64,000 nucleotides of DNA from Oligoflexales bacterium (GTDB lineage Bacteria; Bdellovibrionota_B; Oligoflexia; Oligoflexales; JALZUQ01): assembly GCA_023301465.1 (NCBI GenBank), contig JALZUQ010000035.1, positions 320-64,319 of the forward strand. Reading direction: 5' to 3'. Shown here one piece after another: positions 952-9,765 of the stretch. Below the pieces are notes generated by a model. The model saw nothing but the letters and a program-made list of their open reading frames with translations, was not told the origin of the DNA and made no database searches. Position 1 is the stretch's first letter. Each line of letters begins with the position of its first letter. The position numbers and the translations under genes were made by a program.

Positions 952-1422
952 TTAATATCTAGTAAAGAAATTCTCAAGTTTATCAGAAAAAATAAGAATC
1001 GCTAAACCAAACACCGTTGTAAAAATCGCTTTACCAAAATGCTCAAGACCAATAGCTGCACCTACCGCTGCAAGCATCCAGACAACTGACGCTGATGTAA
1101 TTCCTTTAATATTACCATTTTGGGAAAAAATAACACCACCACCCAAAAAACCAATACCTGTAATCACCTGACCTAACACCCTTGTTGGGTCTGCAACACC
1201 CCCAGTAAGACTCTTACCTATAGAAATAAAAAATGCTGTTCCCACACAAACTAAAATACAGGTTCTTACACCAAAGGGTTTATCGCGTTTTTGTCTTTCT
1301 ACTCCAAATAGAAAACCACATATACTTGCTAATATTACTTTAAGCATAAATATATTCGTCACATCACCAAAAAGGACGAGAAGAAGACTCTTTAAATCGA
1401 AGCTAAAGTCTTGCATGTTCAT
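952..1422 (-). CDS. MgtC/SapB family membrane protein
   Basis: Motifs GVERQ..KPFGVRT, DPTRVLGQVITGIGFLGGGVIF, GITSAS. Confidence 0.9.
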   Translation of the reverse strand: MNMQDFSFDLKSLLLVLFGDVTNIFMLKVILASICGFLFGVERQKRDKPFGVRTCILVCVGTAFFISIGKSLTGGVADPTRVLGQVITGIGFLGGGVIFSQNGNIKGITSASVVWMLAAVGAAIGLEHFGKAIFTTVFGLAILIFSDKLENFFTRY

Positions 1423-1657
1423 TTCAATTCCTTGATTTAATCAATTCATGAGTTATATTTATTATTTTACAACATAAAGACATAATTAAGCAATAACAGT
1501 AAGAACACCCATAGGTTGGCTCTCTCTAAGCAGTCCACAAGAAGGATTGCAGAAGATGACAATAGCAAGATTCAAACAATTGACGACCTTTATCAATATA
1601 TTCTTAAAATATTGAATTTTTTTAAGCTATGAAACCGCTACTGAACGAGAATAAAAA

Positions 1658-2386
1658 CTAGTTAAGCAGCCCAACTTCTTTTAGATCGTTTAACTGAGAT
1701 TCACTTATTTTGGACGTGGTTGGATCTTGTAAATATTTGTAAACATTTTCTTCTATGCAATATAAATCTGGCTCATGTTGAAGTTCATTTCTAACAAATA
1801 ATAAATACTGAGTTTCTTTATCAGGTCGAACATTTGTTGGTTGGTTTTTATCGTTTTTTGATGCTTCAACAGCCTTAGCAATATTGAATTCTTGCTTTAA
1901 CGCACGAAATGGTTTTTTGGTAAAAACTAAAGATTTACCTGAAATCTGATCAACACTAGCCTTACACATATCTAAAACAGCATCTTCAAAACTTAAAAGA
2001 TCTTTTAACCAAACTGAATATTCTTGAAATACATGATGGTTTAAGTTGTTTTTAATACACTCAAGAAACTGTCTAGAATATTCATTTTTACCATTATGAT
2101 CACTGCTAATACGAATAGCTGATGGTTCATATACAACCTGCCAAAAATCATATAATGCACCATTATCAATAAATCGAAATAAATTTGGTAGTCGCTTCCA
2201 AAGATCGTCCCAACGACCTTCTGCTTGCTCGTTTCCGTATTTATTAAGTTCTTCATCGTTTTTGAGTGATTCAATTGTGTTTTTTTGTAAACTATTCAAA
2301 CCATCAAATAAAAGACTATCAGCTAATTCAAACCCAACTGGTTGACGAATTAACATACTCACACTTTTTAGTAGTGCATCATTCAT
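1658..2386 (-). CDS. Putative MNIO partner protein (DUF2063/HvfC/BufC-like)
   Basis: Start overlaps the DUF692 stop (ATGA, 2383-2386); pattern LNKY...LP.LF...F...Y.P...YS.QFL...WLKDLLSFEDA resembles DUF2063-type partners. Confidence 0.6.
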   Translation of the reverse strand: MNDALLKSVSMLIRQPVGFELADSLLFDGLNSLQKNTIESLKNDEELNKYGNEQAEGRWDDLWKRLPNLFRFIDNGALYDFWQVVYEPSAIRISSDHNGKNEYSRQFLECIKNNLNHHVFQEYSVWLKDLLSFEDAVLDMCKASVDQISGKSLVFTKKPFRALKQEFNIAKAVEASKNDKNQPTNVRPDKETQYLLFVRNELQHEPDLYCIEENVYKYLQDPTTSKISESQLNDLKEVGLLN

Positions 2387-3255
2387 ACTACAGACACCCC
2401 ACTTTTCATTTGATTTAAAGCATTAGGGTAAATAGTTATATCTGATTGATTTAGTATATTATTTGCAATATTTACTTCATGAATGAGTTCATTAAAGGTT
2501 GGAATATTTTGATCTCTTTCTACAATCGTAAATTGAGGTTTCTTTTTTGTAACTAGGTATTCATATAAATCCCATACAGGTTTTGGTATATTACTCCCGT
2601 GGGAATCATAAAGCACACCATCTTCTTCGCTGCCACCAGCAAGGTGTACACCCTCTACAGAGCCGAGATTAATTTCATCAATCCATTTATAGGGATCGAA
2701 ACCAAAATTAACACTATTAATATAGGTATTTGCAAGATCCATAATCATCTTACACCCAGTTTTTTCTAAGACTTTATTTATAAATTCAGTTTCACTATAT
2801 GGGCAATTAGGAACTATAAATCTATTGGTAATATTTTCTATAAGAAACGGAACCTGAACTTGATCTTGAATTCTTGAAATGTTTTCACACACTCCATTAA
2901 AAACATTATCTGTCCAAGGCAAAGTAGTTAACTGCCCCATCTCAATTCCATTGTACTTTGTAAAGCATAAGTGATCGCTATAAAAAACGGTGTTCACCTG
3001 ATTCATAACATCTTTGATTTTATCAAGATGGCTCTGATGAAACTCACCGACCGAACCAACCGACATTTCCACACTATGAATAACAACTGGCACATTTGAC
3101 CGTTGAAGCGTTTCAAGAAAAGAGGCTTTCTTACCAAAGAAAAAACTCTCCGGAATAAGCTCAATTAAAGGAAGTTGACTAATCAGGTCATCCACTCCTT
3201 CTGTATTTGCGATTTCAAATGGCAGTTCTAAACCAACACCGAATTGTTTATCCAT
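2383..3255 (-). CDS. DUF692 family multinuclear non-heme iron oxidative enzyme (MNIO)
   Basis: 290 aa with ordered motifs ELIPE, HSVEMSVGS, SDHLCF, LIENI, MDLANTYINSVN, VHLAGG, YDSHG, IVERD matching DUF692 Fe-ligand motifs. Confidence 0.92.
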   Translation of the reverse strand: MDKQFGVGLELPFEIANTEGVDDLISQLPLIELIPESFFFGKKASFLETLQRSNVPVVIHSVEMSVGSVGEFHQSHLDKIKDVMNQVNTVFYSDHLCFTKYNGIEMGQLTTLPWTDNVFNGVCENISRIQDQVQVPFLIENITNRFIVPNCPYSETEFINKVLEKTGCKMIMDLANTYINSVNFGFDPYKWIDEINLGSVEGVHLAGGSEEDGVLYDSHGSNIPKPVWDLYEYLVTKKKPQFTIVERDQNIPTFNELIHEVNIANNILNQSDITIYPNALNQMKSGVSVV

Positions 3256-3285
3256 TTTAATACCTAATTCTTATTTCTGAGATGA

Positions 3286-3330
3286 AGTAGGTGTCATAAG
3301 TAGATTACTCAACTCATGACACCATCTACT
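3286..3330 (-). promoter_or_regulatory. Long stem-loop between precursor gene and MNIO gene
   Basis: mRNA sense GGUGUCAUGAGU-U-GA-GUAA-UC-U-ACUUAUGACACC forms a 12-bp stem plus GNRA-capped tip; no U-tract follows. Confidence 0.7.
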
Positions 3331-3353
3331 AAGTTAGACAAACTTAGGATTGT

Positions 3354-3488
3354 CTAGCGACGACCGCATCTACGACCACATCTACGACCACATTTACGAC
3401 CGCATTTACGACCGCATCTACGACCGCATCTTGCAGCAGTAGTTTTTCCAGCTTCTGTGTTACCTGATAACGTGTTTAACTTGATCAT
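3354..3488 (-). CDS. Putative RiPP precursor peptide, 44 aa: MIKLNTLSGNTEAGKTTAAR-(CGR[R/K])x6
   Basis: ATG at 3488 with GGAGG at 3501-3497 (8-nt spacing), located after the ABC transporter stop; six Cys; directly upstream of DUF692. Confidence 0.88.
   Translation of the reverse strand: MIKLNTLSGNTEAGKTTAARCGRRCGRKCGRKCGRRCGRRCGRR
3360..3431. repeat. Six tandem 12-bp repeats ACGACC(G/A)CAT(C/T)T encoding the repetitive precursor core
   Basis: acgaccgcatct, acgaccacatct, acgaccacattt, acgaccgcattt, acgaccgcatct, acgaccgcatct. Confidence 0.95.
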
Positions 3489-3510
3489 TACTCTATCCTC
3501 CGTTGAGTGT

Positions 3511-5271
3511 TTAAATATATCTGTTCGATTCATCTGCAGTTGAATCGGCAAGATTGGGATTAATGTTCGAGACTTTTGAAGACTCGAAATGAACATGATG
3601 ATCTACATCCAAATTTTTTGGAGCAATATGAGAAACAAGACAAATTGATTTATCTTGTTTTATTTTATTGAGAGCATCTACTACGTAGTTCACACTTAAA
3701 TCATCCAGAGAAGCAAATGGTTCATCAAGAAGTAATATATTTCGATCGCTTAATAATGCACGAGCTAAGGAAATTCTATACTTTTCACCTTCACTCAAAT
3801 TTTTTCCTTGATCATGGATTAATGAATTTAACCCACCTTTATCCTTAAATCGCGGCATTAAGTTTAGTTGCTCAAGAACATCAAGAAGTTCTTTCTCAGA
3901 GTAATCCTGACCTAACTCTATGTTCTCTCTTAGGGTGCCTTGAAACAAAAATGGAACTTGTTCAACATATGCAGCAAGTTTTGTAGGTAAGTAGTTGCCT
4001 TTTATTCCATGGTAACTAGAAGAGAATAAATTTTGTGTGCTGACTTTCATCGACGTAAAATCAGCACTACGCAAACCACTCAGAAACTCTAGAAAAGTTG
4101 ATTTACCACAACCGGAGTGACCTTGAATTAACGTTGTTTTACCGTTTTTTAATGCAAAATTAAACGGCTCCATCAGCATCAAACCGTCAGTGGTATGCAA
4201 CTGAATATTTTTAATTTCAATACTACAAACTTGATTATTATCTAAAAGATGATCTAGATCTTGATAAATTTCTTGCTTTGGAGGTTGAAGCAACAATGCA
4301 AGTCTTCCACCTTCAATAAAGTAAAGATTCCAATCAAAAATAGAACCAATCAATGAAAGAGCACTTGAATAAAACATTCCAATATAAAAAGGAAAAACAA
4401 GAACTTCACTCAATCCAAGTTGACCTTGATTTAGAGACCATGCAGCTCCAGACAAACAAACCGTTAAAAGAACTTGAGACACAAAAGAATTCGCACCCAT
4501 TAATGACCCAATGATTTTCGCAACTTTCATGCTTGAAAAAATAAGACTGTCAATTTTATTTTTGAATTTTTTGTTCATAAAAGACTCTGCCGAAAAAGTT
4601 CGTACCGTTCGAAAACCTTCATAGTTTTCCATAAAGCCTTGAAATATTTCACCGTGAGTTGTTCTTAATGATTCTAAAAGTGGATTTACTTTGGTTTGAA
4701 TCCACAGGTTAAGAAATGCAACTAAACTTGCAGTTATCAAACATATTGTCGCAGCAAGAGGACTATGAATATAAAAAAGAATCGTAATTCCAATTACGGT
4801 GACAAAGCTCTGAATTTGAGAAGGTATGCTTACCGTTATGAAGTCTTGAGCACTCCGTAAGTCCATAGACAAACGAGTCAACCAATCTCCACGTTGACTT
4901 TCGTCAAACGATCGAGCATTTGATTTTTGTATGGATTGTAATGCTTGTATTCTAAGACTTGCTTCGACCTTTAATGTCAACCACTCCTCTACAATTTGAC
5001 TAACCACTGATGAAACTAACAAACACCCAGCAATTACTAGACCAAAAACAATTAATGGTTTTAATAAACTAGATACATCTAGGGTTTGTCCATTTGCAAT
5101 TAAGGTTGCACCATCGGTAAAGTAAATCAAAAGTCTCGGGGGTAAAAGCCCAACCAACGAACCCAGTGCTCCAATAACAATTGCTAAACAATAACGTGAT
5201 CCAAGTTGGGATACTTGTGATTTTAGGAGTTTTAAAGAAGCGGTTGTTTGTGGTGTGTGACTAAGTTTCAT
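3511..5271 (-). CDS. ABC exporter, fused TMD+NBD, no C39 peptidase domain
   Basis: N-terminal TM helices; Walker A GHSGCGKST, signature LSEGE, Walker B LLLDE, H-loop VSH. Confidence 0.9.
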   Translation of the reverse strand: MKLSHTPQTTASLKLLKSQVSQLGSRYCLAIVIGALGSLVGLLPPRLLIYFTDGATLIANGQTLDVSSLLKPLIVFGLVIAGCLLVSSVVSQIVEEWLTLKVEASLRIQALQSIQKSNARSFDESQRGDWLTRLSMDLRSAQDFITVSIPSQIQSFVTVIGITILFYIHSPLAATICLITASLVAFLNLWIQTKVNPLLESLRTTHGEIFQGFMENYEGFRTVRTFSAESFMNKKFKNKIDSLIFSSMKVAKIIGSLMGANSFVSQVLLTVCLSGAAWSLNQGQLGLSEVLVFPFYIGMFYSSALSLIGSIFDWNLYFIEGGRLALLLQPPKQEIYQDLDHLLDNNQVCSIEIKNIQLHTTDGLMLMEPFNFALKNGKTTLIQGHSGCGKSTFLEFLSGLRSADFTSMKVSTQNLFSSSYHGIKGNYLPTKLAAYVEQVPFLFQGTLRENIELGQDYSEKELLDVLEQLNLMPRFKDKGGLNSLIHDQGKNLSEGEKYRISLARALLSDRNILLLDEPFASLDDLSVNYVVDALNKIKQDKSICLVSHIAPKNLDVDHHVHFESSKVSNINPNLADSTADESNRYI

Positions 5272-5457
5272 GTTATTTTTATATCACGGCAAAATTACTT
5301 TTTGCAATATGTCAAAACGACTATGTCATACCGCCAAGAATTCGGCCGATTTGGCATACTAAATATAGTTATCTCTAAATAGTACTCTTAGGCTGTAAAG
5401 TAAATTTTGTCTGGCACATTTTTTATTTTCATTAGAACTTAAATTAAAGCACAAAAG

Positions 5458-5991
5458 CTACCTTCTACTTAAGATTTTATAAATACCAAAACACCCAATT
5501 GAAAATTGCCAGATAAACACCTTAGAGTCTTATGCACTCGCAAATGCTCCAAGCTCTAAAATAAAACCATGAAAGTTGTATCCAAAATTTACTCCGAGCA
5601 GATAACCTACATCATTATCACTACTGTTATTAACATTTGAAATTGTTGAAATATTTGCAATCTATATAGGTGAAAGATGAAAGGCGGCAACGTCTGATAA
5701 CTCATCACCATCAAAGCTATAACTACTTGAATAATAAACCAGATCCAAACCAATACCGAGAACATGCTGTTTGGCAGAAGGTTGGGACAACATATATTTA
5801 TCATCTAAACCTAACAAAAAGACAAAAGCATACTTAAGCATTAGGTCAAATTGAGGCGTAGATCGGGCTCTTACTCCAGCTTTAATGATAGGTACATAGA
5901 CATCTTCTAAAGTCTCTTACGCATCACAACTACTATCATTTATAAATCTGATATTTTGAACAGCTATGGCATCAAAACTTATCCATTCACC
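5458..5991 (-). pseudogene. Degraded outer-membrane beta-barrel-like gene
   Basis: One minus frame reads ...YVPIIKAGVRAR...HVLGIGLDLVYY...DVGYLLGVNFGYNFHGFILELGAF...WQFSIG with in-frame stops at 5917-5919, 5662-5664, 5530-5532. Confidence 0.45.
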
Positions 5992-6200
5992 TTATCCAGT
6001 TAATGATACGCGTATTAATCGCTCTAAGTTTCAATAACTCATACAAGCAGTTTATCTTAATTATAAAACAACCTCAGAAAAATAGGAATCATTGATACGG
6101 AAAATGTTTATAAGCATTTGAGTTAGCACTCAACTTGTTATCTGACGCACTCCCTGATATAAATATAACTACTATTTTATAAGATTAGGAGTTCAGTATA

Positions 6201-6962
6201 ATGCGTCATCTATTCGTTTTAAGTATGTTTCTATTTAGTTCTATTGGTTTTTCACAGTTCGACCATGAACATAAAGCCTTAACTTCCGTACTATCAAAAT
6301 ACATGGACTCAAAAGGCCTTGTTAAATACAAACAACTTAAAAAAGACACTAAAGCGAGCAAAAGTCACCAATTTAATAAGTACCTAAACTCAATCGCAGC
6401 AGTAAGCGTGAATACATATGGGACTTGGAACAAAAACCAAAAAATGGCTTTTCTCATCAATGCATACAATGCATTTACTGTTAAGTTGATCATCAATAAT
6501 TATCCGGTAGACAGCATCAAAGATATTGGAAGCCTCTTTAAAAAACCTTGGAGAGTTGAGTTTTTTAATTTATTGGGTGGAAAAATTAAAGCACTAGATC
6601 CAATCGAACACACATATCTTCGACCTATGTACAAAGACTATAGAATTCATGCTGCAGTGAACTGTGCATCTATCTCTTGCCCACCTTTAAGAAATGAAGC
6701 GTTTGTAGCATCAAAGCTAAATAAACAACTAGACGAACAAATGACAGCTTGGTTGGTAGATACCACGAGAAATCAGTTTTCAAAAAAATCCATAAAAATA
6801 TCCAAAATATTTAGTTGGTATGAGTCGGATTTTGCAAAATGGGGAAAAGGTGTAAAAAATGTATTAAGAAGACATTTACCTGATAACCTTAAAGGGTTTG
6901 TCACTGAAAAAATTGACATCGACTATATGGGATATAGCTGGGACTTAAACGAATCAAAGTAA
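6201..6962 (+). CDS. DUF547 domain secreted protein
   Basis: Signal peptide; AFLINAYNAFTV, RIHAAVNCASISCPPL, SKIFSWY..DF, YSWDLNE; AGGAG RBS. Confidence 0.9.
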   Translation: MRHLFVLSMFLFSSIGFSQFDHEHKALTSVLSKYMDSKGLVKYKQLKKDTKASKSHQFNKYLNSIAAVSVNTYGTWNKNQKMAFLINAYNAFTVKLIINNYPVDSIKDIGSLFKKPWRVEFFNLLGGKIKALDPIEHTYLRPMYKDYRIHAAVNCASISCPPLRNEAFVASKLNKQLDEQMTAWLVDTTRNQFSKKSIKISKIFSWYESDFAKWGKGVKNVLRRHLPDNLKGFVTEKIDIDYMGYSWDLNESK

Positions 6963-6973
6963 TACTTTTTATG

Positions 6974-7004
6974 ATAGTACCGATTTATAATAAATCGGTA
7001 CTAT
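6974..7004. terminator. Perfect 14-bp inverted repeat between convergent genes
   Basis: ATAGTACCGATTTA-TAA-TAAATCGGTACTAT. Confidence 0.65.
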
Positions 7005-7678
7005 AGATTTTGATTTTTAATCCACTCCATTAAATTCATCTGAGAACCATGAGTTTTCATATTCGATAGATAACTAAGGAGAGGATTAAGATCCTCAACA
7101 TGATCAACATCTGTTAATGTTTCATCCAACAAGCCAACTTTACCTACTGTTTTTAGTTTAGTTTCTAGTTCATCAAGTGTCGTAGACTCACTATAAGACA
7201 CGCCTTGCCATAAACTAGGTTCTAATGCTTTTTTACCGCCAAATAAATAAAAACCACCATCAGAAGCAGGGCCAAAAACAAAATCTTTTGAATTGATCAA
7301 TGCATTATGTGTTGATCGCAACTGTTTTACACTTAACTGAGGGGCGTCAGATCCTAGAAAATATACTTGCTCATGCAAAGGCTTTAACTGAGAATAAATT
7401 TGACCCAAGCGATCACCAAGCCCGCCTTCTGGTTGATAAATCAATTCAAAATTATCCCAATACTCTTCACCACCTTTTTTTGCAAGACACCAATACAAAG
7501 AGCATTCTATGCCATCTTTATGCAATAATGATTTAAACTCAATTAAAGTTTCTTGAACTGCTTTGATAGAACGGTGATAAAACTCTAAAGCGTTTGCCTT
7601 CCCAATCCCCTTAGCAAGCCTAGTTTTGATGGGTGAGATGTCTGGAGTCTTTACAAAGACAGCAATTGCAACACTCAT
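7001..7678 (-). CDS. TIGR04282/DUF2064 family (CofC-like) transferase
   Basis: Start MSVAIAVFVKTP with AAGGAG RBS; KTRLA, QPEGGLGDRL, LGSDAP, GPASDGGFYL, DVDHVEDL. Confidence 0.85.
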   Translation of the reverse strand: MSVAIAVFVKTPDISPIKTRLAKGIGKANALEFYHRSIKAVQETLIEFKSLLHKDGIECSLYWCLAKKGGEEYWDNFELIYQPEGGLGDRLGQIYSQLKPLHEQVYFLGSDAPQLSVKQLRSTHNALINSKDFVFGPASDGGFYLFGGKKALEPSLWQGVSYSESTTLDELETKLKTVGKVGLLDETLTDVDHVEDLNPLLSYLSNMKTHGSQMNLMEWIKNQNL

Positions 7679-9048
7679 AAATAACTCCTTTTCGAATAGC
7701 CCATGCTTTTTCTTAGGTCTAAGCACATGATTAAAATAATGAAAGAATACACTAGGTATCTCAATACATAAGGATCACTTCCAATGATGTAATATATAAT
7801 ACTCAATAAAGATAATATTGACCAAACCCAAATAAAGTTTATTTTCGAAATAAATGGAAAACCTCCTGCCAATAAAAGAAGGAGGTACCATGGGTGCAAA
7901 GTTGGAGAACAAACCAGAAGACCAGTAGACATCAACAAAATAGATGCTTTGATTGATAGTTTGTTTTTGCAGTAAAAGTAAAATAAAGTAGCAGCGTAAA
8001 TCAACCCAAGAAAACTAACCGCAATTCGAGCCTTATCAACTCCAATACTGTTATCCATAAACGTTGACAAGAAATCAGCCAAAAACCTATGTAGAAAACC
8101 AAAAAAATACCAGTGTTTTGAAAAATGCATCGCAGAAGACAAAAAATTACCTCCTGAACTTGAATAATAACTAAAACACAACAAACCAGCCGCAACAGCG
8201 ATCATTAAAAAACTATAAACATTCTTTGTGAAACCATATTTTCTATGACCATATATGAATAAAAACGGGAAAAAAATCAACGGATACCACTTGATAAGCA
8301 CCATGGATAATATAAGAGAAAAATACAGAAGAGGTTTTTTAGTATCAAGAACCTTCTTCAAAAAAATAATGAGTAAGATACAAACGACTACATCAAGATG
8401 ACTATTAGCCAATCCTTTCAATAAAAAAAGTGGGTTGAAAATAATTAAATGCCAGTCAAAATCTCTGATGATATAAATCATCAGACTTGCCAAAACACCG
8501 ACTAACACCTTCCAGCCAATATATATTTGCCATGTGTGTGTTGGCACAAACTCATCAAGACCAGCACCACCCAACAAAAAAGGCCAAAAGTATGGATTTA
8601 AATAACTACTAATATGAAACAATACTTGTGCTAATGGTGGGTAAATAGTTGGTAAATGTGGATGATTAATATATTTTGCCCAAGACACTTCGTAGAATTG
8701 CTCCAAATTTTTTGGAGCAAAAGCATAAGGGTTTATACCGTTTGCTCCATTCAGTCCGTCCCAAATATATCGAATGTGATCTGACTCCAGAACAAAGGGG
8801 ACTCCTAATGCAATTGCCATTGTGAAAACGACACCTGTTTTCCAACTTGGCTTTTCGATAGATTTAAAAACAACAGGTATATAAGAAAAACCTAAAACGA
8901 AAATAAAAGAAATATAAATGAAATAAGAGTTTTTTAGTTCACCAAAAAATTGATCCGAAATTTTCCAAGACATGAACACCCAGTAGGATAAGGCTATCAT
9001 CAACCAAGAATAGTAGGTTCTAAGAGGTGTGTTTTTTAGTTTTCGCAT
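7675..9048 (-). CDS. Polytopic membrane glycosyltransferase (GT-C / GT87-like)
   Basis: SDHIRYIWDG..G.NPY, TIYPPLAQ, NSHLD, SPTLHPWY; many TM helices; start uncertain (9096/9048/9000). Confidence 0.75.
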   Translation of the reverse strand: MRKLKNTPLRTYYSWLMIALSYWVFMSWKISDQFFGELKNSYFIYISFIFVLGFSYIPVVFKSIEKPSWKTGVVFTMAIALGVPFVLESDHIRYIWDGLNGANGINPYAFAPKNLEQFYEVSWAKYINHPHLPTIYPPLAQVLFHISSYLNPYFWPFLLGGAGLDEFVPTHTWQIYIGWKVLVGVLASLMIYIIRDFDWHLIIFNPLFLLKGLANSHLDVVVCILLIIFLKKVLDTKKPLLYFSLILSMVLIKWYPLIFFPFLFIYGHRKYGFTKNVYSFLMIAVAAGLLCFSYYSSSGGNFLSSAMHFSKHWYFFGFLHRFLADFLSTFMDNSIGVDKARIAVSFLGLIYAATLFYFYCKNKLSIKASILLMSTGLLVCSPTLHPWYLLLLLAGGFPFISKINFIWVWSILSLLSIIYYIIGSDPYVLRYLVYSFIILIMCLDLRKSMGYSKRSYL

Positions 9049-9765
9049 GTATTGCAACTTTATTAAAGATCTCTGAAACTCCATAATAAAATACACAATA
9101 CAATATTTTAATTCCAGCCTTAATAGAGCCCGATAGTGATCCGCTTATTTTTGATTTTCCATATTTTCTTTTTTTGTAGAAAATATCAATCTCAAGGATT
9201 TTTACTCTTCGAAAGATAGCTTTAATTTGCATTTCGACATTCCACCCCCAGTTCTTATCTTGCAAGCCTAACTGCTGATAAACCCTGTATTGCATAGCCC
9301 GCATGGGCCCCATATCACTATAACGATAACCAGTAACTACAGAAATTAAAAAAGTTTGTAGCCAATTTCCAAACTTAGCATGAGGTGGCATAGCTCCTTG
9401 CTCCTGGCTTGTGCGTTGCCCAATCATCAACGTGTTCTCTTGGTCTTTTACAGTTTGATAAAAATGATCTAATTGATCCTCAGGTGAGCTTCCATCAGCA
9501 TCGAAAACAATTAATACACTATCGTGTCGTATGAGGTGTTCAGACTTTAGATAAGACACACCTGCTTGAATTGCTCCACCGTAACCCTTTACTGCACAAG
9601 TAGTCGTATGAAGCTCTGGAATTGATCTAGCGTATTCTAACCCACCGTCTGTACTACCATTATCAATCATCACAACTTGGTAGTGAGGTAATATCTTAGG
9701 AAATAGCCATTTGAGATTTTCAATCTCGTTTAAGACTGGCAATAAAATAAAGCAGTTTTTTGCAT
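9020..9765 (-). CDS. Glycosyltransferase family 2 (polyprenol-phosphate sugar synthase-like), 5' end apparently frameshifted
   Basis: PVLNE, DNGSTD, GYGGA, FDADGS, DMGPMRA, GWNVEMQIKA, GKSKISG; coupled ATG at 9765 is one base out of frame; first in-frame standard start is TTG 9742. Confidence 0.85.

Follow-up and report, generated by a model that had tools for sequence, protein, structure and literature searches.

The window analysed here, a 64,000 nt stretch of DNA from an Oligoflexales bacterium (contig JALZUQ010000035.1, positions 320-64,319, of assembly GCA_023301465.1; position 1 is its first letter), contains four open reading frames (ORFs) that lie head to tail on the minus strand. They encode an ATP-binding cassette (ABC) exporter, a 44-residue peptide, an enzyme of the MNIO (DUF692) family and a 242-residue protein, here called the partner. 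A first-pass annotation had taken four co-oriented, tightly packed genes at this place for an operon producing a peptide that is made on the ribosome and modified after translation (a RiPP), and all four ORFs were indeed found there, on the minus strand. The features are:

3511-5271, minus strand: ABC half-transporter (transmembrane plus nucleotide-binding domain), 586 amino acids (aa), putative peptide exporter; matches PF00664 and PF00005
3496-3501, minus strand: Shine–Dalgarno (SD)-like sequence GGAGGA, 8 nt 5' of the peptide ATG; read directly
3354-3488, minus strand: precursor peptide ORF, 44 aa; recognized from the ORF, the SD-like site and conservation
3429-3488, minus strand: precursor leader, residues 1-20, MIKLNTLSGNTEAGKTTAAR; carries the N-terminal motif common to the relatives
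3357-3428, minus strand: precursor core, residues 21-44, (CGR[R/K])x6; stop codon at 3354-3356
3290-3323, minus strand: stem-loop between the precursor and enzyme genes; from RNA folding
2383-3255, minus strand: MNIO (DUF692) enzyme, 290 aa; PF05114, E 1.5e-71
1658-2386, minus strand: partner protein, 242 aa; from its predicted fold and its position adjoining the MNIO gene

The spacing is tight, with 22 nt between exporter and peptide ORF and 98 nt between peptide ORF and MNIO gene, and the ATG of the partner overlaps the TGA of the MNIO gene, reading ATGA.

The peptide consists of the leader MIKLNTLSGNTEAGKTTAAR followed by CGRR CGRK CGRK CGRR CGRR CGRR, so that each Cys stands in an [R/K]-C-G context built from Arg-based 4-mers rather than Lys-based motifs. 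The net charge of the core is about +12, and its DNA is a 12 bp tandem array of 6.0 copies (3360-3431, 93% matches). By inspection, the leader lacks the hydrophobic core of a signal peptide, in agreement with the earlier claim that there is no Sec signal; the DUF2282 precursors encoded elsewhere in the same genome do show such a core. A Sec-exported bufferin was ruled out for this reason. The window peptide matched no NCBIfam model at E ≤ 1 and no other family, and Pfam gave no DUF2282 match.

The arrangement recurs in related bacteria. In a six-frame search of 131 genomes of the phylum the partner was found in seven, the window's own included, all of them within one order. The six other genomes all keep the sequence ABC gene, small ORF or ORFs, MNIO gene, partner gene, and in all six the small ORF encodes a leader and a basic Cys repeat at the same position, preceded by an SD-like sequence (GGAG-like motifs 5' of the peptide ORFs). 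The repeats themselves differ. The nearest relative has about nine copies of CSRR, with Ser after Cys where the window precursor has Gly; the others have six to eight copies of CG[RH]R (as two tandem copies of the gene in two genomes), CxRPS 5-mers or a WRN[C/H] form. His replaces Arg in many of the relatives' repeats (CGHR).

Using the enzyme alignment, we then scanned 185,579 species genomes and obtained 565 confirmed MNIO relatives, of which the best 80 loci were listed. Only seven of the 565 have at least 42% identity, and all seven are accompanied by basic Cys-repeat peptides; their labels are Oligoflexales, Pseudobdellovibrionaceae, Bdellovibrionota or 'Deltaproteobacteria' metagenome-assembled genomes (MAGs). 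At 37% identity and below, the loci among the best 80 mostly have precursors with signal peptides, of the EGKCG, EGSCKGK, KKCSGD or DUF2282 kinds, and the remainder have unassigned or signal-less precursors. Basic Cys-repeat peptides were found in two genomes beyond the six recovered through the partner, and a metagenome scan added 17 contigs, 11 of them with further precursors, including CSRRPR 6-mers and CRCS-type two-residue repeats. In total, cassettes with basic Cys-repeat peptides occur at about 20 loci in Bdellovibrionota genomes and metagenomes, with repeat units of 2, 4, 5 and 6 residues. The earlier expectation that close homologues of the enzyme would have similar Cys-repeat ORFs nearby therefore holds in genomes and metagenome contigs alike.

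Twenty aligned precursors from 16 loci share the N-terminal motif M-x-K/R-E/Q/L-x-x-V/L, after which the repeats begin. Despite variation in the DNA, the unit length and the copy number, the reading frame and the spacing of Cys persist, as is characteristic of a selected coding sequence. Judged from these alignments, the peptide is encoded by a genuine gene with a conserved family of relatives. At three loci two tandem precursor genes have near-identical leaders and differ in the number and kind of repeats, CGRR against CGHR (L018:4525-4860, L019:4509-4860 and L113:175-536), which suggests expansion and contraction of the 12 bp array by slippage. None of eight precursor sequences is present in a collection of 15 billion proteins, and a precursor profile run against 5.8 billion clusters recovered a single called protein, a WRNC-type peptide. 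The absence of called versions of these precursors from protein databases is a possible reason for protein-based surveys to overlook them: gene callers pass over them, and so, in consequence, do network-based surveys.

The enzyme belongs to the DUF692/MNIO family, as had been proposed: it matches PF05114 with 241.2 bits (cut-off 25) over profile positions 20-262 of 263, and PDB entry 3bww with E 7.2e-35. Among the NCBIfam models BufB scored highest (211.8 bits), followed by HvfB (172.2), ApyH (101.2), ChrH (62.3) and MbnB (45.2), all below their curated cut-offs. Nine columns (H60, H95, E140, D173, N176, H204, D217, H219 and E246), which would correspond to the iron-ligand positions of the MbnB and TglH structures, are invariant in all 97 aligned MNIOs.

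A quick maximum-likelihood tree of these 97 MNIOs (model LG+G4, rooted at the midpoint, with SH-aLRT as the only branch support; L032, a duplicate of L031, and rows of less than 200 aa were excluded) places the enzyme in a clade of 20 rows with an SH-aLRT support of 100. The clade contains all 18 rows labelled as having a basic Cys-repeat precursor; in the other two the upstream DNA lies beyond the contig end, so every clade row whose upstream DNA is visible (18/18) has the precursor. We assigned the labels manually from the ORFs directly upstream of the enzyme, because automatic classification of Arg/Cys-repeat ORFs had produced false positives where loci were GC-rich. Together with other MNIOs the 20-row clade forms a group of 35 rows (SH-aLRT 100), apart from the captophorin types with signal peptides; its further members include L048-L050, L054-L056 and L063 (Corallococcus, Myxococcus, Pyxidicoccus), L026 (Asanoa), L035 (Brevibacillus) and L039 (Tundrisphaera). 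The candidate precursor at L026 ends in ...TCNCYGSCGATIHQTGTECTFGSTTCLER. On two metagenome contigs (L106:7-261 and L109:3294-3800), MNIOs that fall just outside the clade lie 3' of longer ORFs with alternating Cys dipeptides at their ends (CACACLCAC, CACVCVCAC); the partner profile found no match at either locus.

Two residues near the N-terminus of the enzyme change together with the substrate. In the column of window residue P12, 75 of the 77 MNIOs that lie outside the 20-row clade have Arg, against 0/19 inside it (one row has a gap), and in the column of E10, Glu is present in 19/19 rows inside and 0/76 outside. In the fontiphorin enzyme FonB, Arg15 and Arg16 contact the Glu of the EGKCG substrate; Arg15 keeps out positively charged residues, and the R15A variant takes a substrate containing Arg (PMC13097082). 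The equivalence of FonB and window columns comes from our own alignment, anchored on the EGKCG-type locus L095 (GLGLRR, ERDF). Because an Arg is lost and a Glu gained in the enzyme, we infer from the alignment an adaptation to a poly-Arg substrate. The cassette provides a natural test of substrate choice by MNIOs: the gatekeeper Arg disappears and a Glu appears with the change from an acidic or Lys-rich to a poly-Arg substrate. Residue D248 sits in the column of FonB Asp249, the proposed catalytic base (PMC13097082); this column is Asp in 8/8 rows of the window's own subclade and in 77/77 rows outside the clade.

The partner matched nothing in Pfam or NCBIfam, nor did its six relatives. DUF2063 (PF09836) was found in 0/7 members of the partner family at E ≤ 1, and the window partner gave no HvfC match in NCBIfam. 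As a positive control, the partners at two other MNIO loci of the same genome did match DUF2063 (54.1 and 32.4 bits). These loci are canonical bufferin-type cassettes (L001, G000:C20:2911-6693, and L003, G000:C8:40176-43943), each of which pairs a signal-peptide-bearing DUF2282 precursor with an MNIO and a partner of the DUF2063 type, and they set off the different layout of the four-gene locus, which the first-pass annotation had already contrasted with HvfA and bufferin systems. Their partners are short, 170 and 164 aa, and therefore probably lack a full RiPP recognition element (RRE) domain.

An AlphaFold2 model of the window partner from a seven-sequence alignment, of moderate confidence (pLDDT 77, pTM 0.71), has a helical domain (about residues 1-141) followed by an RRE-like domain of three strands and a helix (about 160-237). 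The only significant Foldseek matches in the PDB were to TglI (8hi7_A, E 2e-4, probability 1.00, TM 0.56/0.52); the DUF2063 protein NGO1945 (3dee) was at rank 27 (TM 0.40/0.46). Placement of the partner relies on this fold search, because a profile search of PDB sequences gave nothing significant (best E 1.2). The first-pass annotation had suggested a check of this protein against DUF2063/RRE models: it does model as an MNIO partner with an RRE-like domain, with TglI as its best match, and by sequence it is not a DUF2063 protein. Antoine et al. (2025; PMC12452194) describe PME-type 2 partners as lacking the DUF2063 Pfam signature, having a TglI- or NGO1945-like structure and accompanying signal-less precursors, and report that signal-less precursors correlate with non-DUF2063 partners. 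Given the absence of the DUF2063 signature, TglI as the best fold and a gene directly after that of the MNIO, we regard the partner, as modelled, as a PME-type 2-like protein.

The partner family is small, but by these searches not tiny. As a single query against genome contigs the partner gave 179 pattern matches, none of which was confirmed, and among 5.8 billion protein clusters it had one non-self relative (51% identity). A profile run against 1.84 billion representative proteins found 121 clusters at E ≤ 1e-3, 51 of them at E ≤ 1e-30. The same profile matches 19 of the 97 MNIO loci, all within the 20-row clade and always directly 3' of the enzyme gene. A language-model atlas yielded unnamed clusters and some clusters bearing DUF2063, NGO1945_C or PqqD, at 0.87-0.90, which we treat as leads only.

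The exporter has only the PF00664 (residues 28-301) and PF00005 (369-520) domains and lacks a C39 peptidase domain, which rules out a C39-type bacteriocin exporter. Its NCBIfam matches are all far below cut-off (the best, CydD, at 178 against 435 bits), and the peptidase-ABC models align to its transporter part only, again far below cut-off. Orthologues with 32-80% identity, full-length or cut by the contig end, adjoin the cassette at 13 related loci, upstream in 11 and after the partner in two. Of two further loci, one carries another ABC gene, on the opposite strand, and the second a major facilitator superfamily transporter, and the remaining contigs are too short to tell. An exporter gene is thus adjacent wherever the flanks are visible.

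Beyond the cassette lie genes for an MgtC family protein, DUF547 and DUF2064 proteins and a 473-aa membrane protein (952-1422, minus strand, and 6201-9096). They are not apparent beside the cassette in the relatives' gene maps, and we therefore take the unit to be the four genes only. A Pfam scan of the neighbouring genes found neither DoxX nor a sigma factor, as had been noted earlier for DoxX and ECF sigma factors.

The 101 nt intergenic RNA between the precursor and MNIO genes folds at -29.5 kcal/mol (z -4.0, with 0/200 shuffles as good). A stable hairpin follows the precursor stop directly in most loci examined (L012, L017, L018, L019, L022 and L105, with U-runs in L022 and L105). It may act as a leaky terminator or RNA stabilizer that sets a high ratio of precursor to enzyme.

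A sister subclade of 12 rows, comprising WRNC, CRCS and some CGxR types, departs from the window cassette. At all six loci with three W-R-N-C repeats (L020, L021, L023, L099, L101 and L112) a gene for a radical S-adenosylmethionine (SAM)/SPASM protein follows directly after the partner (for example L021:6655-8205, equal to L015:6099-7652 on the minus strand). The six proteins are 58-100% identical, and their best NCBIfam matches, all below cut-off, are to peptide maturases (PapB, DynA, DarE and cyclophane formers). The W-x-N of these repeats is reminiscent of three-residue cyclophane motifs. L021 also carries an M16 peptidase.

Taken together, the four genes very probably constitute a RiPP cassette. 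We propose that the 44-aa precursor is made in the cytoplasm, where its 20-residue leader would dock onto the partner's RRE-like C-terminal domain, the partner being in complex with the MNIO. The iron enzyme would then work along the core and oxidize each Cys in its R/K-C-G context; the six Cys are probably the modified sites. Each would most likely be converted to a 5-thiooxazole, with a loss of 4 Da, as in BufB, HvfB and FonB, the closest characterized relatives. This product is assigned by analogy, with the odds evenly balanced; it is favoured because the BufB and HvfB models score best, because the catalytic Asp is kept and because a small residue follows Cys, which FonB also favours (PMC13097082). 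Fontiphorin offers a precedent, with -4 Da per site, absorbance at 302 nm and alkylation by iodoacetamide (PMC13097082). The polycationic product would leave the cell through the ABC half-transporter rather than Sec. Outside the cytoplasm its thiooxazole thiols, flanked by Arg (His in relatives), would most likely bind soft metals, for example Cu(I). We give the biosynthetic mechanism, 5-thiooxazole formation included, a probability of about 0.5. Metal binding as the main role is put forward tentatively, at somewhat less than even odds; we favour it because characterized captophorin relatives bind Cu (PMC13097082) and because His often replaces Arg in the relatives' repeats.

Several observations weigh against this mechanism. 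The enzyme stays below the cut-offs of the BufB (NF050167, 310 bits) and HvfB (NF003818, 360 bits) models with its 211.8 and 172.2 bits, although the BufB threshold is strict for this lineage, because the DUF2282-linked MNIOs of the same genome, at 304.1 and 214.1 bits, are also below it, the second of them with nearly the score of the window enzyme. Neither the 20-row clade nor the wider signal-less clade of 35 rows contains a characterized member. MNIOs with PME-type 2 partners, namely TglH, ApyH and PbsC, are reported to carry out quite different chemistry (PMC12452194). Within the family, the column of the catalytic Asp (D248; window 2512-2514, minus strand) is Thr in 12/12 sister rows and Asp in all 85 other aligned MNIOs, and in three of the 12 the Asn of the E-N motif is moreover replaced by His; given this Thr and the added radical SAM gene, the chemistry is not uniform across the family. 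No copper-related or regulatory gene was found among the scanned neighbours adjoining the cassette, and the window's cassette does not encode a protease to remove the leader. A promoter and terminator scan of 1400-6200 found 10 promoter-like sites where 18.7 were expected and one terminator-like site where 2.5 were expected, and did not call the hairpin at 3290-3323. Finally, the strong basicity of the peptide and an ABC pump of its own would also be compatible with the role of a bacteriocin-like agent.

The same cassette and substrate might instead support another Cys chemistry: oxazolone-thioamide formation as by MbnB, excision of the beta-carbon as by TglH, a ChrH-like rearrangement, or some other crosslink between Cys four residues apart. 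The partner fold, nearer to TglI than to the PME1 protein NGO1945, points this way, as do the chemical diversity of MNIOs with PME-type 2 partners (PMC12452194), the branch with SH-aLRT 100 that splits the clade from the captophorin-type enzymes, and the BufB and HvfB scores below cut-off. Yet by HMM score the enzyme is much nearer to BufB and HvfB than to TglH, ChrH, ApyH or MbnB; it retains the catalytic Asp, and its substrate the small residue after Cys; and the oxazolone-thioamide once assigned to the related oxazolin has been revised to 5-thiooxazole (PMC13097082). We consider a different chemistry unlikely for the window enzyme. The sister subclade, without the proposed catalytic base and with a recruited radical SAM enzyme, gives a hint of new chemistry.

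An antibacterial role is the main alternative as regards function, and it is a serious rival even though we hold it to be improbable, to a degree similar to that of a different chemistry. The modified peptide would then be chiefly a weapon, a polycationic membrane-active or nucleic-acid-binding bacteriocin-like RiPP directed at competitors or prey, with the pump serving for export and self-protection and metal binding being incidental. The charge of the core would suit such a role, as would the replacement of Sec by a dedicated exporter at all loci with visible flanks, the lack of a DoxX, sigma factor or copper gene nearby, and the restriction of the cassette so far to genomes labelled Bdellovibrionota (or, for some MAGs, 'Deltaproteobacteria'). 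On the other hand, the cassette contains no immunity gene and no leader-cleaving C39 domain; the His-rich CGHR variants and the nearest characterized relatives point to metal binding (PMC13097082); and a predatory host is a supposition, the relatives being labelled only as Oligoflexales, Pseudobdellovibrionaceae or Bdellovibrionota MAGs. The two roles could also be combined, although we rate this as decidedly improbable: a secreted, cell-penetrating poly-Arg backbone with six thiooxazole metal sites might carry copper or another soft metal into neighbouring or prey bacteria, or strip it from them. The product would then act as a weapon that delivers metal, not as a buffer that protects, and on this exported scaffold the sister cassettes, with the Asp lost, a radical SAM enzyme added and W-R-N-C repeats, would build another series of distinct chemistry.

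It is highly improbable that the small ORF is spurious or encodes something other than the substrate, with the 12 bp repeat as non-coding DNA and the MNIO acting on a peptide or protein encoded elsewhere. The absence of all eight sequences from the protein collection and the lack of a family match would fit a spurious ORF, but conservation speaks against it: across about 20 loci the ORF retains its place and strand, an SD-like site, the leader motif and an in-frame periodicity of Cys, despite changes in DNA, unit length and copy number; some loci have two tandem copies; and the ORF tracks the enzyme clade in 18/18 rows whose upstream DNA is visible.

We conclude that the cassette is genuine and conserved, and that as a variant of the MNIO RiPP theme it has so far gone undescribed. 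Peptides modified by MNIOs make up a fast-growing class of natural products, and a system of one 44-aa precursor plus two enzymes is compact enough to be co-expressed directly. The first-pass annotation did not recognize a described precursor with CGRR repeats, and we likewise found no printed description of these precursors, of this partner family or of Bdellovibrionota MNIO cassettes; the only match to the repeat string in the literature was a fungal paper. We found no mention of an Arg/Cys 4-mer repeat, an ABC exporter or Bdellovibrionota in PMC12452194 and PMC13097082, whose supplementary alignments and data sets may list such loci.

Among known systems, TglHI of Pseudomonas syringae (3-thiaglutamate/pearlin) provides, in TglI (PDB 8hi7), the best match to the predicted fold of the partner. 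It resembles the window system in its leader-dependent cytoplasmic recognition and belongs to the PME-type 2 category (PMC12452194). TglH itself is distant from the window enzyme (71.7 bits over residues 127-247), and the window lacks a PEARL/tRNA-dependent gene for Cys addition and has many internal Cys rather than one at the C-terminus.

In the methanobactin system, MbnABC, a small leader-bearing precursor is modified at Cys by an MNIO and its partner in the cytoplasm, exported by a dedicated transporter, and binds copper. The window enzyme matches the MbnB model with only 45.2 bits (cut-off 325), its partner differs from MbnC, genes for uptake or TonB are lacking, and the core is repetitive and polycationic. 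The CXXX-repeat and Cys-every-fifth systems (NCBIfam TIGR04115, NF038107) share a Cys at a fixed short period with the window precursor and differ in using a radical SAM/SPASM maturase instead of an MNIO; only the WRNC-type sister cassettes add a radical SAM enzyme to the MNIO.

The signal-less 'Adjamnio' groups of Antoine et al. (2025; PMC12452194) combine a Cys-motif precursor that lacks a signal peptide with an MNIO and a non-DUF2063 partner, and thus fall in the same category as the window cassette. The combination of a signal-less precursor with a PME-type 2 partner is therefore already published and is not a new category. The groups treated in that main text are longer (119-293 aa for groups I and IV) or were modelled as folded proteins from Massilia and Hahella.

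Closest in chemistry, if the proposed mechanism holds, are the captophorins (the bufferins BufABC, oxazolin HvfABC, fontiphorin FonABC and gonophorin), MNIO-PME1 systems that install 5-thiooxazoles on Cys (PMC13097082; PMC12452194; bioRxiv 10.1101/2024.03.18.585515). They share with the window cassette the enzyme family and nearest HMM models, the gene order precursor-MNIO-partner, the metal ligands and catalytic Asp, and a Cys-rich repetitive precursor in which Cys follows a basic residue and precedes Gly; the [R/K]-C-G of the window resembles the K-C-G of EGKCG substrates and of the Lys-Cys group. They differ in several respects. The window precursor has a short leader in place of a Sec signal peptide, and a dedicated ABC exporter and no DoxX accompany it. 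PME1 partners combine DUF2063 with an RRE, whereas the window partner lacks DUF2063, and the 4-residue Arg-rich repeat belongs to none of the EGKCG, Cys-Lys or DUF2282 precursor groups. The N-terminal loop of the enzyme has gained a Glu and lacks the near-universal Arg (75/77). The characterized thiooxazole members are all Sec-exported and Lys- or acid-rich, with DUF2063 partners; next to them, the window cassette would be a compact, leader-dependent, pump-exported, poly-Arg version.

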